From: Escherichia phage JoYop
Reading direction: 5' to 3' (one strand)
Sequence record: OR769032.1
Length of the DNA: 64,000 nucleotides
The position numbers and the translations under genes are program-made. This document shows positions 2,261-50,132 of this stretch, in pieces. Below the pieces are notes generated by a model. That model did no database searches. It worked only from the letters and a program-made list of their open reading frames with translations, and was not told the DNA's origin. The first letter of the stretch is position 1; each line of letters starts with the position of its first letter.

Positions 2261-2991
2261 TCACCGTTATAATCTTTTTTCATAATATGAGTTTCGCCAG
2301 TATTCCACCAATGATCAACCAAGTAAAAATGACGGGAATATACATGAAGACTTCCAACATTCCATATAATAGAACCTGCTTTATACTGACGAGTTGAATC
2401 GCCTGCATTCAAATCAGATACTAATTTATCTAGTACGTATTTTTGCCATGCATAGTCATTACGGAATCCGAAGACCACGTCATTTGAGCGCATGCTAACA
2501 ACTGCATTGATTTTCTTGTCACGAATCAAGTATTGTACTGTATTCGTGCACATGAAATCTGACATACCATCTTTATTGTAGTCAAATTGCATGGATGGAC
2601 GAGTATAAATCATGATACCACGTCGAGAATCAGGATTTTGACCAAGTTCAGCTAAGCACATATCATACTGGGCATAGTTATCTTCTGACCAGATAGCCCA
2701 ACCATAATTCGAGTTAATTTCGCCTTTAGAAGATGCTACCTGTTGCCAAATCTTTGGTGTTTCACCTGGAATATCTTTAACAAACAGGCTTTGAGACTTG
2801 TACCATTCAAGTTCACGCTGAATGTATTCATCATTAAGAGCACCAAAAATAAAGGGTTCATCTGCTACAAATGATGCGCCAATAATTTCAATAGTTTTAA
2901 CACCAGTTTTATCAATTACGAAATCTTTTTCCTTTAATGCAGTTCCCAAATAAAGACGGATTTCTTCAACTGTCATAGAGTCATTAATCAT
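2251..2991 (-). CDS. 42: dCMP hydroxymethylase
   Basis: 246 aa; near-identical to T4 gp42 as recalled (MI.DSMTVEEIRL...GASFVADEPFIFGALNDEYIQRELEWYKS). Confidence 0.95.
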   Translation of the reverse strand: MINDSMTVEEIRLYLGTALKEKDFVIDKTGVKTIEIIGASFVADEPFIFGALNDEYIQRELEWYKSQSLFVKDIPGETPKIWQQVASSKGEINSNYGWAIWSEDNYAQYDMCLAELGQNPDSRRGIMIYTRPSMQFDYNKDGMSDFMCTNTVQYLIRDKKINAVVSMRSNDVVFGFRNDYAWQKYVLDKLVSDLNAGDSTRQYKAGSIIWNVGSLHVYSRHFYLVDHWWNTGETHIMKKDYNGEWK

Positions 2992-2998
2992 TTAAACC

Positions 2999-3148
2999 TC
3001 AATTGATGCATTCATATTTAAATTGTAACAGTAATAAACCCCACCCTATGATAAGAGTTGGAATCATAACAGGAACTGTTACGCTATAGTATATACTTAT
3101 TATAACCATCAAGATTAAAAGCAACACTGCTATAATTTTGCTTTTCAT
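2999..3148 (-). CDS. small membrane peptide (imm.1 position)
   Basis: 49-aa hydrophobic ORF MKSKIIAVLLLILMV...; start overlaps the imm stop (ATGA); not in the supplied ORF track (<60 aa). Confidence 0.45.
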   Translation of the reverse strand: MKSKIIAVLLLILMVIISIYYSVTVPVMIPTLIIGWGLLLLQFKYECIN

Positions 3149-3396
3149 TCTTTCTCTCTGATGATAATTACTTGATTTGGCTGTGCAGACTTTTTGGTTT
3201 CACCCGCAATTGACCAAATAAATGTAATAAACCAACCGATAATTGACCAGTTAAACAGTAAAGACGTGAAAAAGATTCCTACTGTCGATTTTGACCCACG
3301 CATCAAGGCAATGAACCATGGAAGCATGTATATAATAATAGCCAACACGCCTGAAACTAAAACCATAAAAATTGAACCTGCTACTAAAGTTTCCAT
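3145..3396 (-). CDS. imm: Imm-like two-helix membrane protein (superinfection immunity)
   Basis: 83 aa, two hydrophobic segments, located between gene 42 and gene 43 as in T4. Confidence 0.65.
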   Translation of the reverse strand: METLVAGSIFMVLVSGVLAIIIYMLPWFIALMRGSKSTVGIFFTSLLFNWSIIGWFITFIWSIAGETKKSAQPNQVIIIREKE

Positions 3397-3403
3397 ATTT
3401 TCC

Positions 3404-3784
3404 TCACTTAGTCAAATTTTTTACACATGAATTATAAGAATTCACCACATACTCCATCGGAGCATTTTTACCTGTACGCCATTGGTAATTATTAGCCCAA
3501 TTTGCCCAAAGTTCAGCGCAATAATTTTCAATTTTTTCTTCGTGTGTAATTACATCTGAATTACGATATGCTTGAGCAGATTCATCTGGGCGAATAGCTT
3601 CGTCAAAATTCGCCTGCATTTGTTCTACTGTCTGCTTTGGAGCTTCTTTATAACACTTGACATTAGGATTATAAAATTTGCTTGAGCAGTTTACAATTTT
3701 TCCTACATCAGATTGATTTACTACCGGTCCTTGAGCTACACAACCAGTAAGACCCAATGCAATAACCAAAATAGCGATTTTCAT
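3404..3784 (-). CDS. predicted lipoprotein, unknown function
   Basis: 126 aa; signal peptide with lipobox (ALGLTGC); several Cys; no T4 counterpart recalled at this position. Confidence 0.6.
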   Translation of the reverse strand: MKIAILVIALGLTGCVAQGPVVNQSDVGKIVNCSSKFYNPNVKCYKEAPKQTVEQMQANFDEAIRPDESAQAYRNSDVITHEEKIENYCAELWANWANNYQWRTGKNAPMEYVVNSYNSCVKNLTK

Positions 3785-41318: not shown

Positions 41319-41621
41319 TTATTTACCTTTAATTACTTTAGCTGCTTCGATAGCCGCTTGCTGAAGGTCATCCATAGACATACCGAATTTAGAAGCAAAG
41401 TTATCAATTTTCTTTTCGACAGCATTCAAAGGCTTGGCCTGTTTACCTTCATTAGCGCCAGGAAGAGCGAGAATACGCTCTTTGTCAATATAAAGGCTTA
41501 CAAGTTTCTTACGGTCTTTATCGGACAAATCATGAAATGAATGGGCCTTTTTATTTATAGCGGCTTCTAATTTACCTGCACTCACTCGCGCTTCAGTAAT
41601 AAATTCTTGATAGGTTTTCAT
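41319..41621 (-). CDS. ipII: internal protein II-like
   Basis: 100 aa; N-terminal capsid-targeting sequence MKTYQEFITEA; length matches T4 IPII. Confidence 0.75.
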   Translation of the reverse strand: MKTYQEFITEARVSAGKLEAAINKKAHSFHDLSDKDRKKLVSLYIDKERILALPGANEGKQAKPLNAVEKKIDNFASKFGMSMDDLQQAAIEAAKVIKGK

Positions 41622-41661
41622 ATGTTTCCTTTAATGTAAATAGATTTGAGTATTCGTTTTA

Positions 41662-42240
41662 TTAGGAATTACGGGCTGCATTAGCAACGGCGTAAGCGTA
41701 CTGAATATTGACGTCTTTAAACGTACCTTTGGAGGTATCTATTTCTGCCTTAAAGCCGCCTTTAGTCATAACATCGGCAAATTCTTTACGGAAAGCCATT
41801 GCATCAAGACCTTTCCATGATGATTTATGCTTAGCAAATTCAAGACCAGCGTAGTTGACAGCCTTAGCTAATTTATTATCAATAACCCATTTACCGGCTT
41901 TAGGTACAAACACTGGGCCTTTCTGTTTAGAGAATAGTTTTAAATTCCAACGACGAAGGTCACCGTCAGCTTTAACAAAAGCTGCGTCCAAGTTACTAGC
42001 AACAACATCTTGAATATGGCCAAATTTAAGCCCATCAACTTCAATATTTAGATCAGTACGCCAGCGAAGTCCTTCCCAAGCGAAAGCTTTAAAGTCAGAA
42101 GCTTTTGTAGCTAAGTACCGTTCAATAGGAGCCGTTTTAGGGTCAAAGCCGTTTCCCGATCGATAGGTCCACTCATCTTTATTAATGCCTTTGGCCTTTT
42201 CCACAGAAGCTTCAGCGATAAATTCTTTATACGTTTTCAT
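41662..42240 (-). CDS. ipIII: internal protein III-like
   Basis: 192 aa; N-terminus MKTYKEFIAEA; length matches T4 IPIII. Confidence 0.75.
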   Translation of the reverse strand: MKTYKEFIAEASVEKAKGINKDEWTYRSGNGFDPKTAPIERYLATKASDFKAFAWEGLRWRTDLNIEVDGLKFGHIQDVVASNLDAAFVKADGDLRRWNLKLFSKQKGPVFVPKAGKWVIDNKLAKAVNYAGLEFAKHKSSWKGLDAMAFRKEFADVMTKGGFKAEIDTSKGTFKDVNIQYAYAVANAARNS

Positions 42241-42301: not shown

Positions 42302-42562
42302 TTAAGCTTTACCGCCAGAAATAATTCCGAAGTTGTTAAAATCGTATCCAATATCGTCAACATCTACTTTAGGGCTTGCTACAACATAAGCAATTTCACT
42401 ACGTTTTGCATAGGTGTTTATTTCTTTACCATCACCGCCTAGGAAAGAATACCCATTACGTTTTAATGAGCCAAAGTCTTCCGCATCACCAATGAAAGCT
42501 TTAACTTTAAATTTAGGACCTTTGGCATCTGCTTCAGTGATAAATTCTTGATACATTTTCAT
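42302..42562 (-). CDS. internal-protein-like small protein
   Basis: 86 aa; N-terminus MKMYQEFITEA matches the IP capsid-targeting motif. Confidence 0.6.
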   Translation of the reverse strand: MKMYQEFITEADAKGPKFKVKAFIGDAEDFGSLKRNGYSFLGGDGKEINTYAKRSEIAYVVASPKVDVDDIGYDFNNFGIISGGKA

Positions 42563-46120: not shown

Positions 46121-46714
46121 TTATTTCAGAGAATTAATGTATTCCTGAACATCGGCAGAGGTGGTTTCAACCCCAGAAATATTACCGTTAAAGGTTTCAA
46201 CTCGAGCAAGAGTATCTTCAATATCAACCTTAGTCAGTGCTGCAATTTCAACTACATCATCAGCAGTACTAATTCCAAGGGCATTCGCTGCACGAGTTTC
46301 ACGGATATATTCCAATTTAACTGCAAGTTCTTGGCGAGCATCATCTAACTCAACTACTTTCTTGGCGATTTCAATTCGCATTTCAGCATAACCATCAGCT
46401 TTAGTAGTTAACTGTTCAGCTGTTCGACGATATAACAAGCCGAGTTTAGCATGCATTGTTACATCTTGACCTTCGGAAAGAAGCTTACGAATTTCACGCT
46501 CTTTTGATTCGGCCTGCTTATTCTTTTCGACAATAAGTTCACGAATACGTTTTTCTTCATTAATAGATTTAACAGAAGCAGTTTTTAGGTCTTTAATTTT
46601 ATCAAGTAGTTTTGCTGCTGCAGCAGTATACTGTTCTTCAACAGATAGATTTTTAGCCATAGCAGAACCAAGTTTAGTGCGAATAAACTCAACAATTTTC
46701 TTCAGTGTGTTCAT
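46121..46714 (-). CDS. long alpha-helical coiled-coil protein (PspA/IM30-like candidate)
   Basis: 197 aa; charged heptad-rich sequence throughout; similarity to PspA judged by composition only. Confidence 0.5.
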
Positions 46715-47002: not shown

Positions 47003-47266
47003 TTATTTCATATTATTGAAATATTCTTCTGCGATTTCGTCGTTATCATGGTAAACTTTAGAAGACAGCTTAACATAACCTTCAGCAGTGAACATGTTAA
47101 TCACAACCTTTACAGTATACCACTGACCGTCTTCATTACCCATTACTGCATAGGTTTCAAACATCGGATGGTCAGGACCGATAACTTTAATATCATTCAC
47201 CGTACGACCAAAATCTTCTGAAACACATTTCATAAAGAAGTTGAACAGTTCACCGTAATTATCCAT
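47003..47266 (-). CDS. hypothetical protein
   Basis: Start at ATG 47264-47266 (MDNYGELF) with RBS GGAG; 87 aa; directly behind an early promoter. Confidence 0.55.
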   Translation of the reverse strand: MDNYGELFNFFMKCVSEDFGRTVNDIKVIGPDHPMFETYAVMGNEDGQWYTVKVVINMFTAEGYVKLSSKVYHDNDEIAEEYFNNMK

Positions 47267-47295
47267 TTCGTTCTCCAAGTTGTTTTCTGTATCAG

Positions 47296-47337: not shown

Positions 47338-47472
47338 ACAGTTTTGTGAAAAAATTTTTAAAAAGTTTTGGGGAATTCTAGGGCAGGGAGGGGCAATTAA
47401 AGGATAGGATAATATATTATAAAGGGTAGAAACTAAATGATGCCTAGAGAGGCCCGGAAAGGCCTAGATATC

Positions 47473-47497
47473 AAAAACCCCAACCTTTCGGCTGAGG
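47473..47497 (-). terminator. rho-independent terminator downstream of the IP-like gene
   Basis: On minus strand CCUCAGCC-GAAA-GGUUGGGG plus U-run; pairing needs G-U wobbles so works only on the minus transcript. Confidence 0.6.
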
Positions 47498-47506
47498 CTA
47501 AGAATG

Positions 47507-47980
47507 TTATTTGATTTGTTTAGCAGACCAAATGCGGTCTTTAATAATTTTTTGGATGTCTTCAACATACTCAAGAGAGTGAACATGCGGGTTATCTTTG
47601 AAACTATAAGCACGAGCTAGCTTTTGGCCTTCAGTTTTGATTACTAAAAGCTCTTTAAGGATAGCTTCATATTTGGAAATAATTCCTTTAACAATATTTT
47701 TCTCTTGTGCGACTTTAGGATCTGCTTTAGGAGCAGGTTTACCTGAAGCTTTTGCAAAAGCAGCTCCAGTAGCAACTAAACTTTTCCAAGCCATACTAAC
47801 TGCATTTCCCGTAAATCCTTCTGCTTTCATATCGCGAGCAAATTGGAATCGCGATTCATCAGAAGCATCTTTATAGGAATATTTACCCGCGGCAATGGCA
47901 GCTTTTGCGACAGCTTGAATTTCGGTGCTAGATGCTTCATTTAACACCGCTTCATTTAAAAATTGAGCATATGATTTCAT
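47507..47980 (-). CDS. internal-protein-like protein with capsid-targeting N-terminus
   Basis: 157 aa; MKSYAQFLNEA; RBS AGGAAA; own late promoter upstream; bounded by terminators on both sides. Confidence 0.65.
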   Translation of the reverse strand: MKSYAQFLNEAVLNEASSTEIQAVAKAAIAAGKYSYKDASDESRFQFARDMKAEGFTGNAVSMAWKSLVATGAAFAKASGKPAPKADPKVAQEKNIVKGIISKYEAILKELLVIKTEGQKLARAYSFKDNPHVHSLEYVEDIQKIIKDRIWSAKQIK

Positions 47981-48016
47981 CTTATTTCCTGTTTTAATTC
48001 GGGGTTTTAATATACT

Positions 48017-48024
48017 TATTTATA
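48017..48024 (-). promoter_or_regulatory. T4-type late promoter (TATAAATA)
   Basis: tatttata on plus = TATAAATA on minus, about 37 nt upstream of the ATG at 47980. Confidence 0.5.
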
Positions 48025-48026
48025 CT

Positions 48027-48053
48027 AAAAAGCCCCAACCTTTCGGTTGGGGC
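48027..48053 (-). terminator. rho-independent terminator
   Basis: Minus strand GCCCCAACC-GAAA-GGUUGGGGC followed by UUUUU. Confidence 0.7.
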
Positions 48054-48059
48054 TAAGCC

Positions 48060-48385
48060 TTGCGGCAACCTTGTCGGGGTTCCACCTGCTAAGGCAAGTG
48101 TTTGTACGAAACGCCGGGATTCGAACCCGGTTATCAAGCAGTTGACGCTACTCAATATTTTTAAAAGGCCATATCTCGACCATATCCGAACGTTCCGTCA
48201 AAAACGCTACTCGGCTTACGGCAAAGATATTTCCTCGAATCGATAATTCGGTGCGCCGTTTCTGCTGTGATATAAGGGAACATTAACAGATCGTAAAGAT
48301 TTGTTAATGCCGGTCCTTAAACAGGGAGCATCAGTCCGACGACTTACCGGTAGCGACCCGGTTTCTTAATATTCTTTTAAAGCAT
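48060..48385 (-). ncRNA. structured non-coding RNA region distal to the tRNA cluster (possible T4 stable-RNA homolog)
   Basis: No convincing ORF; tRNA-like T-arm gggattcgaacccgg at 48116-48130; bounded by terminator and tRNA-Arg side gene. Confidence 0.35.
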
Positions 48386-48389
48386 CAAT

Positions 48390-48716
48390 TTATTCACAGC
48401 GTTTACGCCATAAATCAATTGCTTCATAAGCGGATTCAGCATTTCGAATTAGCCGGCATTTATGTAAAGACTTATGATTTTGATATTGTGTAGATAATGG
48501 AATTGTATCTAAAAGGTCTTTACGATCAAAGTATTCGTAACCATCTAAACCAAATGAACGATTTTTGAGAAATTGCCAATGGCCAAATTCATTTTCAACA
48601 TAAACATAATCTGCATGCTGATAAAGCAAATTAATTACGCGTTCAGAAATAACAGTATCATTATGATTAAAATAAAATGTTAAATCATGAACTACTAAAT
48701 AAACATTACCTTTCAT
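48390..48716 (-). CDS. hypothetical protein inside the tRNA/ncRNA region
   Basis: ATG 48714-48716 with RBS GAGGA (MKGNVYLVVHDL...); 108 aa; track ORF over-extended into tRNA-Arg. Confidence 0.55.
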   Translation of the reverse strand: MKGNVYLVVHDLTFYFNHNDTVISERVINLLYQHADYVYVENEFGHWQFLKNRSFGLDGYEYFDRKDLLDTIPLSTQYQNHKSLHKCRLIRNAESAYEAIDLWRKRCE

Positions 48717-48734
48717 ATTTTCCTCACTTATAAT

Positions 48735-48811
<77 letters not shown>

Positions 48812-48815
48812 TATT

Positions 48816-48890
48816 TGGCGGACATGCATGGATTCGAACCATGGACCAATTGATTAACAGTCAACTGCTCTACCACTGAGCTACACATCC
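48816..48890 (-). tRNA. tRNA-Asn (anticodon GUU)
   Basis: GGATGTG...GCTCAGTGGTAGAGC D-arm, loop CTGTTAA, T-arm CATGGTTCGAATCCATG, CCA end. Confidence 0.8.
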
Positions 48891-48894
48891 AAAT

Positions 48895-48981
48895 TGGTGG
48901 GGAGTGATGGAGTCGAACCACCCGAGTCGCAATGACAATGGATTTACAGTCCACACCGCTACCTCTACGGGATAACTCCCC
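48895..48981 (-). tRNA. tRNA-Tyr (anticodon GUA), long variable arm
   Basis: Loop CTGTAAA; class II variable arm; acceptor GGGGAGT/ACTCCCC; CCA end. Confidence 0.75.
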
Positions 48982-48994
48982 TTAATTCTTAATT

Positions 48995-49069
48995 TGGTGG
49001 CCCTGGGTGGAATTGAACCACCATCTGGCGATTATGAGTCGCTTGCTTGAACCTTCCAGCTACAGGGCC
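48995..49069 (-). tRNA. tRNA with CAU anticodon (Met, or Ile if the wobble C is modified as in T4)
   Basis: Loop CTCATAA; acceptor GGCCCTG/CAGGGCC; T-arm GGTGGTTCAATTCCACC. Confidence 0.75.
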
Positions 49070-49070
49070 T

Positions 49071-49146
49071 TGGTGCTGATTGACGGAATCGAACCGCCGA
49101 CCTTCTCATTACAAGTGAGTTGCTCTACCTACTGAGCTAAATCAGC
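49071..49146 (-). tRNA. tRNA-Thr (anticodon UGU)
   Basis: Loop CTTGTAA; acceptor GCTGATT/AATCAGC; T-arm GGCGGTTCGATTCCGTC. Confidence 0.8.
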
Positions 49147-49150
49147 AAAA

Positions 49151-49241
49151 CTGGCGGAGGCGATAGGATTTGAACCTATGAGTCGCCGGAGCGACTGCCG
49201 GTTTTCAAGACCGGTGCATTAAACCACTCTGCCACGCCTCC
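49151..49241 (-). tRNA. tRNA-Ser (anticodon UGA), long variable arm
   Basis: Loop CTTGAAA in CCGGT/ACCGG stem; class II variable arm; acceptor GGAGGCG/CGCCTCC. Confidence 0.8.
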
Positions 49242-49243
49242 AG

Positions 49244-49317
49244 TCTCCATACAAGGATTTGAACCTTGGACCTCCTGATCCCAAATCAGGCGCTCTACCA
49301 AACTGAGCTACACGGAG
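49244..49317 (-). tRNA. tRNA-Pro (anticodon UGG), CCA not encoded
   Basis: Loop TTTGGGA; C1-G72 acceptor; 3' end abuts tRNA-Ser without CCA. Confidence 0.75.
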
Positions 49318-49327
49318 TAAATTAAAT

Positions 49328-49401
<74 letters not shown>

Positions 49402-49406
49402 AAATT

Positions 49407-49493
49407 TGGTGCGAGAAGTGGGACTCGAACCCACAAGGAAATCATTCCGCAGCATTTTAAGTGCTGTGCCTTTACCAATTTGACCATTCTCGC
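49407..49493 (-). tRNA. tRNA-Leu (anticodon UAA), long variable arm
   Basis: Loop CTTAAAA in CAGCA/TGCTG stem; class II variable arm; T-arm GTGGGTTCGAGTCCCAC. Confidence 0.8.
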
Positions 49494-49499
49494 GCTATA

Positions 49500-50132
49500 T
49501 TATTTATTACGTGAAAAAGACTGTTCTATCAATTCTGGACACTTTCGTTCTATCCATTTTCTAGCTTTTTGTGGGCTTATACCTATTATTTTAGCAGCTT
49601 TACTAACCCATCCAAATTTAGAATAATCGATTTTAACTAATTCTTCGTAAATTTCATCAGTTAAAATCTTTTCATTAATATTTACCAGTAAATGATATAA
49701 TTTATTATCATTAGCAATTTTAATGAATCTTTTATAGTTTCCGCCTTTACTTAAACCTAATGAAGTAATTGCAGATGATATAGTAGCCGAATTTAATAGT
49801 GCGTTTAAAATTTCTTCATCACTAACATTATAACGCTTTTTATTATTTTTAATATTTTTACCAGCAAAAGTATCAGTTTGCGAATGGCAATTTGGACATA
49901 ATAATCTTAAATTTGATTTAAGATGATTTTTGTTATTTCCATCAATATGATCTAATTGCAGAACAATATGCTTATTTTGCCATTTTGAAATTTTACAAAT
50001 TGCACACTCATATGGAAAAATATTTTCTTTTATTATTTTGTCTTTCAGCTTTCCTGTACTAAAATTTGGATGTTTTCCTTCAAAAATTTCAGCTAATTTA
50101 GTATCCATAATATAATTCCCAATTATTAACAA
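49500..50132 (-). CDS. HNH homing endonuclease
   Basis: 210 aa; HNH core LQLDHIDGNNKNHLKSNLRLLCPNCHSQ; sits at the 5' head of the tRNA cluster. Confidence 0.75.
   Translation of the reverse strand: MLIIGNYIMDTKLAEIFEGKHPNFSTGKLKDKIIKENIFPYECAICKISKWQNKHIVLQLDHIDGNNKNHLKSNLRLLCPNCHSQTDTFAGKNIKNNKKRYNVSDEEILNALLNSATISSAITSLGLSKGGNYKRFIKIANDNKLYHLLVNINEKILTDEIYEELVKIDYSKFGWVSKAAKIIGISPQKARKWIERKCPELIEQSFSRNK

Follow-up and report, generated by a model that had tools for sequence, protein, structure and literature searches.

A terminator-bounded candidate internal-protein gene beside the tRNA cluster of Escherichia phage JoYop

Next to the tRNA genes of Escherichia phage JoYop, a 157-aa open reading frame (ORF) beginning MKSYAQFLNEA lies between two terminators (47507–47980, minus strand). 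It was read from a 64,000-nucleotide (nt) stretch of record OR769032.1, which is called the window below and belongs to a Tequatrovirus (T4-like) genome. Is this ORF a gene, does it encode one of the internal proteins (Ips) that are packaged into the head of T-even phages and injected with the DNA, and what might such a protein do? An earlier, sequence-only reading had taken it for an internal-protein-like late gene bounded by terminators and a candidate injected effector. That interpretation was supported as a candidate: its coordinates, including the position and start of the ORF, were all correct, and the leader, the promoter and the absence of the gene from T4, T2 and T6 were borne out. 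Our analysis indicated, with a probability of roughly 0.7, that the ORF represents a new, previously unannotated Ip family of T-even phages, encoded by a monocistronic late-gene cassette. That T-even phages carry a variety of Ips united by their leader is well established (Repoila 1994, cited in PMC12373910; PMC3012670). The kind of protein is well known; what is new is an unannotated family at a third Ip locus, in about 500 sequenced phages.

The cassette and its family

On the minus strand, the order of features was tRNAs, rnaD, rnaC, terminator, late promoter, ribosome-binding site, ORF, terminator and e.8:

48735–49493, minus strand: cluster of nine tRNAs, upstream of the rnaD and rnaC homologues
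~48250–48369, minus strand: stable RNA similar to T4 rnaD as annotated in NC_000866
~48105–48243, minus strand: stable RNA similar to T4 rnaC as annotated in NC_000866
48027–48054, minus strand: upstream intrinsic terminator, AGCCCCAACC-GAAA-GGTTGGGGCT followed by UUUU (terminator scan and fold)
48017–48024, minus strand: predicted T4-type late promoter, exact match to TATAAATA, 36 nt before the ATG
47985–47990, minus strand: ribosome-binding site AGGAAA, 4 nt ahead of the ATG, recognised in the sequence itself
47936–47980, minus strand: predicted capsid-targeting leader, codons 1–15, MKSYAQFLNE/AVLNE/, with two gp21-type L-x-E/A sites (after E10 and E15; a slash marks the putative cut)
47507–47935, minus strand: predicted mature part, residues 16–157 and stop codon, 15.5 kDa, isoelectric point (pI) 9.6, no Cys
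47473–47499, minus strand: downstream intrinsic terminator, AGCCTCAGCC-GAAA-GGTTGGGGTT followed by UUU (terminator scan and fold)
47003–47278, minus strand: e.8 homologue, matching T4 e.8, the first conserved gene downstream and the right edge of the variable locus

The rnaD and rnaC homologues (~48105–48369) were 92–100% identical to those of T4 and formed the end of the tRNA transcription unit, upstream of the cassette. They matched no Rfam family, even at a permissive E-value threshold.

The ORF encodes a real protein under purifying selection. Against the RB27 and PhAPEC2 alleles, the ratio of nonsynonymous to synonymous substitution rates (dN/dS) was about 0.1 with dS above 1, and no overall sign of positive selection was seen. 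With tblastn, 511 phage records were found to encode the protein, and in 467 of these the coverage was at least 80%. The idea that the ORF arose by chance in an intergenic spacer flanked by terminators was refuted by these substitution rates, by the full-length homologues in several genera, by the ribosome-binding site and promoter in place, and by peptides of a 97.5%-identical protein of Yersinia phage fD1 that were seen by mass spectrometry. The locus itself was matched by 726 records, of which 419 covered at least 80% of it, and the gene was missing from roughly 40% of related records. It adjoined tRNA genes in Tequatrovirus, Mosigvirus, Jiaodavirus and a Yersinia T4-like phage, and since it occupied the same place in these four lineages, its presence looks ancestral. 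Carriers in the BASEL collection included Bas45 (PaulHMueller) and Bas42 (AndreasVesalius).

An exhaustive remote-homology profile search of 1.84 billion representatives returned 13 proteins, all belonging to the same family and to T4-like phages, and none of them was annotated. The names of roughly 118 cluster members were all "hypothetical" or "uncharacterized", with no Ip name among them. The only PHROG match was phrog_2280, labelled "unknown function"; Pfam gave no significant match (the best, at E = 0.12, fell far short of the curated cut-offs) and NCBIfam none. A literature search on locus tags of the family (RB32ORF132c, ar1_137, PhAPEC2_134 and others) found nothing relevant. Many of the about 500 carrier phages are candidates for therapy or biocontrol, and none of the database names read flags the family as Ip.

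The gene was said to have its own late promoter at 48017–48024. The AT-rich window held 12 copies of TATAAATA where 10.8 were expected, which is no enrichment over chance, and a promoter call from the octamer alone was rejected. The position of the element was more informative. RB27, Klebsiella phage phiKp_22 and Yersinia phage fHe-Yen9-01 carried it about 30–36 nt ahead of the ATG, while PhAPEC2 had AATAAATA and a metagenomic relative had CATAAATA at that place. In five further lineages it always stood just past a terminator. The surrounding sequence, including the terminator stems, differed in these loci; the position was kept in Tequatrovirus, Mosigvirus, Jiaodavirus, the lineage of the Yersinia phage and the metagenomic relative. 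The late promoter is credible because its position is conserved in distant relatives, and at the sequence level this claim held. Transcription would then be late, as needed at prohead assembly.

The leader as a putative targeting and processing signal

Mutagenesis of the capsid-targeting sequence (CTS) of T4 IPIII (MKTYQEFIAE) assigned targeting mainly to residues 4 and 7 and processing to residues 8 and 10; gp21 cuts after L/I-x-E, and the propeptides of Ips are 10–19 residues long (PMC9026906). The leader of the ORF, MKSYAQFLNE/AVLNE/A, carried Y4, F7, L8 and E10 followed by Ala, with a second L-N-E/A at residues 13–15. The N-terminus, which had been likened to those of T4 internal proteins, thus matched the CTS at the experimentally defined residues and appears to hold both the targeting determinants (residues 4 and 7) and gp21-type sites. 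The putative cuts, L8-N9-E10/A11 and L13-N14-E15/A16, would leave products beginning with AVLNEASSTEIQAVAK (from A11) or ASSTEIQAVAK (from A16).

These residues were kept over long distances. M1, Y/F4, F7 and L8 were present in all 12 aligned family sequences, the most distant of which were 25–37% identical, and all 12 had a Glu, either at position 10 or, where a short insertion intervened, a few residues further on and in register with E15. The leaders of distant relatives in this identity range read MLKFNEFLAE/G, MINFSDFLNE/G, MKSFSSFLNE/G and MLEYSEFLKE..., and the relatives all had an L/F/I/M-x-E/small-residue site at the same place, closing the leader. In Mosigvirus, Jiaodavirus and the Yersinia T4-like phage, the leader stayed conserved even where identity was as low as about 25%. 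Among 42 close variants, the same positions were kept in all but one, which was truncated at its N-terminus; positions 1, 2, 4, 7 and 8 were essentially fixed, positions 3, 5, 6 and 9 varied freely, and leaders with one or with two cleavage sites both occurred. In the AlphaFold2 (AF2) model, the leader had a predicted local distance difference test (pLDDT) score of 53–63 and lay outside the fold. Because of this low score and its place outside the fold, the leader is regarded as a conserved signal and not as a structural part.

Within the window, a regular expression for the leader matched six ORFs, all on the minus strand. When 522 Met-starts were scored with a matrix derived from the leaders of seven named Ips, the ORF came 6th, and the five that preceded it were the other Ip-type ORFs. 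The leader was also the sole part shared with other Ips. Alignments by hhalign to IPII, IPIII, Ip4–7 and the other Ips of the window covered residues 1–10, 1–13 or, weakly, 1–44 only, and similarity to these proteins ended at residue 10–31. BLASTP of residues 16–157 against Ip1–7 and the Ips of the window gave nothing below E = 0.1, and the mature protein showed no homology to Ip1–Ip7 (PHROG 2280 vs. 7857, 5341, 2667, 3499 and 3155). The Ip class has been described as sharing the leader only (PMC3012670).

In Yersinia phage fHe-Yen9-01 (locus sequence 2422–3537), two tandem paralogues of 189 and 178 aa stood behind a single terminator and TATAAATA. Each had its own leader, MLQYNEFLKESLISE/A and MLEYSEFLKE..., respectively, and the pair is a local duplication of the Ip gene.

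Repeated terminators and cassette exchange

One terminator stood on each side of the gene, and both had a 10-bp stem and a GAAA loop. The upstream stem-loop (48031–48054, followed by a U run) had a folding energy of −20.6 kcal/mol (z = −4.5), and the downstream one (47476–47499, likewise followed by a U run) −15.2 kcal/mol (z = −3.5), both from the terminator scan and fold. The downstream terminator began seven bases past the stop codon. The sequence-only reading had called the two near-identical, which was slightly generous: both were present, and they agreed at 24 of 28 positions. A 14-nt core, CCGAAAGGTTGGGG, was identical in both and had no other copy in the 64 kb (chance expectation, 0). 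With two copies only, the terminator as a genome-wide repeat was ruled out within the window. A direct repeat of ~35 bp bounded the cassette, with its left copy at ~48022–48057 and its right copy at ~47468–47502. The repeat in RB27 extended through TTTTTGGTAT, and the late promoter begins with the final three bases of that sequence.

The sequence-only reading knew of no internal-protein gene at this position in T4. Indeed, T4 had no gene between rnaC and e.8, and T2 and T6 likewise lacked one there. T4 read rnaC, a single terminator and then GGTATCTAAGCC. Its terminator matched the upstream copy of the window, which is the orthologue of the T4 terminator and ends the tRNA/rnaC unit, whereas the bases past its T run matched those past the downstream copy; the 3′ flank of the latter, GATATCTAGGCC, continued as the sequence after the single terminator of T4. 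What separates the window from T4 is thus a 555-bp insertion or deletion that holds the gene, its late promoter and one of the terminator copies, with the ~35-bp direct repeat as its boundary. The state of T4, T2 and T6 looks like a deletion between the repeats, a direction that we infer.

Compared with RB27, identity was 93–100% in rnaD/rnaC, 92–100% in e.8 and 67–87% exactly between the terminators. Because identity dropped exactly there, genomes that are nearly the same elsewhere are considered to exchange the cassette as one block. Gain, loss and swapping of the whole block would proceed by recombination in the terminator duplicates and in the conserved sequence on either side, with T4, T2 and T6 representing the empty site. 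The anatomy of the cassette explains its patchy distribution, and the locus is a clean example of T-even accessory genes being lost or swapped through repeated terminators.

As expected of the Ip class, the gene is non-essential and polymorphic between close relatives: it was absent from T4, T2 and T6, and truncated and fused variants exist. Truncated forms were found in the metagenomic P0014 (94 aa) and the cluster members P0006, P0026, P0040 and P0042 (93–111 aa), a set that included one chimera, in which the final ~30 residues of the family follow an unrelated N-terminus. In some lineages, breakage or deletion of the gene is evidently under way.

The stem variant was common to both flanking terminators within a genome, being CCCCTTCC in PhAPEC2 (Mosigvirus) and CCCCA(A/G)CC in the window and RB27. 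The segments compared were window 47468–48057, PhAPEC2 locus sequence 2425–3003 and RB27 locus sequence around 2440–3010. The paired terminators seem to co-vary per genome, either by concerted evolution or because the whole cassette moves with both copies.

T4-type genomes contain PeSL elements, reportedly described by Arbiol and co-workers in 2010 as stem-loop-bounded mobile cassettes that pair an early promoter with a stem-loop. They resemble the present cassette in having a single accessory gene between repeated stem-loops, present or absent in close relatives, with the repeats offering homology for exchange. The present cassette differs in that its repeat is an intrinsic terminator, which shares its last bases with the beginning of a late promoter, and in that the 64-kb window holds two copies only.

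Possible function and neighbouring genes

The proposed course of events is as follows. Late in infection, gp55-directed RNA polymerase would start at TATAAATA, past the tRNA/rnaC terminator, and stop at the second terminator, which, judged from the conserved signals, would give an mRNA of roughly 540 nt. The 17.3-kDa precursor would enter the prohead core via its N-terminal CTS of 10–15 residues, as the match at the determinant residues suggests. Cutting by gp21 after Glu10 and/or Glu15 (L-N-E/A) would then free a basic, Cys-free, presumably all-helical protein of 15.5–16 kDa that stays with the DNA in the head. At the next infection it would be injected with the DNA and could be active before any phage gene expression. 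Taken with the precedent of the class, the leader, its cleavage sites and the late promoter make packaging, processing and injection probable.

Injected proteins act before any phage gene is expressed, and the four T-even Ips with a known target all disarm type IV restriction enzymes. Ip1, Ip2 and Ip3 inhibit GmrSD type IV enzymes, a different one in each case and without cross-protection (PMC12373910), and Bas37_0260, another leader-bearing protein, inhibits McrBC (bioRxiv 10.1101/2025.11.20.689424). By analogy, the job of the present protein may be to block a host type IV restriction enzyme that attacks modified T-even DNA. An injected inhibitor of a modification-dependent nuclease is a possible but tentative assignment, and the protein is a good candidate for a new injected anti-defence protein. 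The candidate effector is concrete and easily testable, and its absence from the model phages T2, T4 and T6 makes experiments simple.

Several points weighed against a packaged, injected inhibitor. The leader scored 6.2 bits in the matrix, the weakest of the six in the window (the others, 17.6–29.9; the next-best ORF, 1.4), and it was the most divergent of them (S3, A5, Q6). Gp140 of Yersinia phage fD1, whose gene occupies this same locus and whose sequence is 97.5% identical (4 differences in 157 residues), was found in purified virions by means of liquid chromatography coupled to tandem mass spectrometry and called particle-associated at a strict threshold, with no T4 counterpart (PMC8309999 Table S3). 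However, the same proteome also reported 113–137 of 277 phage proteins (41–49%) and 672 host proteins (PMC8309999), and this detection is consistent with packaging but weak, adding little. The virion proteome of phage SH7, with 13 proteins detected in all, was too shallow to be useful. Regarding the target, ip4–10 were without a reproducible target against synthesized GmrSD groups (PMC12373910), and for this reason an Ip cannot be equated with a restriction inhibitor as a rule. The family also spans genera with reportedly differing DNA modifications, and a strictly glucosyl-hydroxymethylcytosine-specific target would fit poorly with this. RB69, taken here as a Mosigvirus, arabinosylates its DNA (PMC6024577).

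The low leader score and the unspecific virion evidence would suit a late accessory protein that is never packaged and stays in the cytoplasm, its leader-like N-terminus being a recombination relic from an ip gene or due to chance. This is unlikely. A relic would decay, yet positions 1, 4, 7 and 8 and the cleavage Glu were the best-conserved N-terminal positions at 25–37% identity, the L-x-E/small-residue site always closed the leader, and the leader was unstructured in the model.

If the protein is packaged, as we prefer, its composition and divergence bear on its role. The precursor has a mass of 17.3 kDa and the product of a cut after E15 would have 15.5 kDa, with a pI of 9.6 and no Cys; T4 IPII and IPIII, with pI values of 9.3–9.5, are also basic and Cys-free. 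The AF2 model (mean pLDDT 76.7) comprised a three-helix N-domain (residues 16–78), a Lys/Pro/Ala linker (79–92) and a C-terminal helical hairpin (93–157). A Foldseek search against BFVD found only the protein's own family, so that fold searches gave no clue to function. The two domains evolved at different rates: dN was 4–7 times higher in the N-domain than in the C-domain (0.21–0.28 vs. 0.04–0.05), and the mean column entropy was 0.53 and 0.14, respectively. The faster-evolving N-domain is likely to be the target-binding module.

The same data raise the alternative that a packaged Ip serves a physical role, as a Lys-rich, DNA-associated filler that lacks a specific host target and either neutralises charge or, within the head and while the DNA is ejected, organises or accompanies it. 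The protein is indeed basic, with 24 Lys and Arg residues, a Lys/Pro/Ala linker and a Lys-rich, highly conserved C-terminal hairpin, and lysines of internal proteins contact DNA phosphates in T4 heads (PMC3012670). The conservation of the family across genera with different DNA modifications and the lack of an overall sign of positive selection are in line with such a role. Nevertheless, we consider it unlikely: the gene is dispensable, being missing from T4, T2, T6 and roughly 40% of related records, the faster divergence of the N-domain and the swapping of alleles between near-identical genomes suit an arms-race effector better, and all four Ips of known function are specific enzyme inhibitors.

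Returning to the protein as an injected effector, a bolder version can be proposed, which we regard as doubtful. The protein would be the founding member of an unusually old and widespread Ip family whose target, given the reportedly differing DNA modifications of the genera in which the gene lies beside the tRNA cluster, is a more general host defence or process and not a modification-specific GmrSD variant. Its N-domain would bind the target, and the near-invariant C-terminal hairpin would be a shared module riding with or on the DNA. The self-sufficient cassette would have terminator repeats driving both loss (T4, T2 and T6) and allele exchange.

Among known systems, T4 IPIII and IPII are similar in having M-K-(T/S)-Y-x-x-F-(I/L)-x-E followed by Ala, a gp21-type L/I-x-E site, a basic Cys-free product and accessory status, and IPII also has a second L-x-E/A a few residues on (KLE19/A). 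In contrast, there was no similarity to them past residues 1–10/15, and the locus is rnaC–e.8 instead of beside e/denV. The orthologues of ipII and ipIII in the window (41319–42240) had no TATAAATA within 90 nt upstream, whereas the present gene has its own late promoter and terminator; they belong to phrog_5341 and phrog_7857, annotated "internal virion protein", and phrog_2280 is unannotated. T4 IPI* (Ip1) is likewise leader-bearing, and it is processed, injected and inhibits the GmrSD of E. coli CT596 (PMC3012670; PMC12373910). It is, however, an alpha/beta protein of 76 residues whose propeptide has 19 residues and whose gene lies at the 57B–tRNA.4 locus, while the present protein is predicted to be all-helical, is twice the size and is unrelated in sequence.

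Bas37_0260 was also recognised as an Ip via its conserved N-terminal signal with no other homology, and it extends the targets beyond GmrSD (10.1101/2025.11.20.689424, HIDEN-SEQ). It differs in sitting at the ipI locus. T2 Ip4, encoded beside e, has the same length (157 aa) and leader class and is absent from T4. The identity suggested by this equal length was ruled out by PHROG (phrog_3155 vs. phrog_2280) and BLAST, which gave no similarity past the leader, and the locus is different.

The five other leader-bearing ORFs of the window all belonged to PHROGs annotated as internal head or virion protein; each was assigned by its Ip leader and PHROG:

41319–41621, minus strand: IPII
41662–42240, minus strand: IPIII
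42302–42562, minus strand: Ip of 86 aa
43041–43322, minus strand: Ip5-like protein of 93 aa
51145–51453, minus strand: Ip7

Together with the ORF at 47507–47980, there are therefore six candidate injected proteins in this phage. The gene order here was e, Ip5-like, denV, 86-aa Ip, ipIII and ipII, and that of T4 is denV, ipII, ipIII and e.

Some neighbouring features were also observed. Directly upstream of tRNA-Leu, a 210-aa ORF (49500–50132, minus strand) contained an HNH-type motif, LDHIDGNNKNH...CPNCH; T4 instead has the GIY-YIG endonuclease gene segB inside its tRNA cluster. The tRNA set was unlike that of T4, with Asn, Tyr and Met present and no Gln or Ile called. An ORF listed with a TTG start (48390–48764, minus strand) overlapped tRNA-Arg (48735–48811); translation probably begins at an internal Met (48716). 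The counterpart in relatives is annotated as RB69ORF150c/RB51ORF141, located between tRNA-Arg and rnaD. Finally, the e.6 homologue (46121–46714, minus strand, 197 aa) had a long, helical, coiled-coil-like sequence and was kept in all relatives examined.

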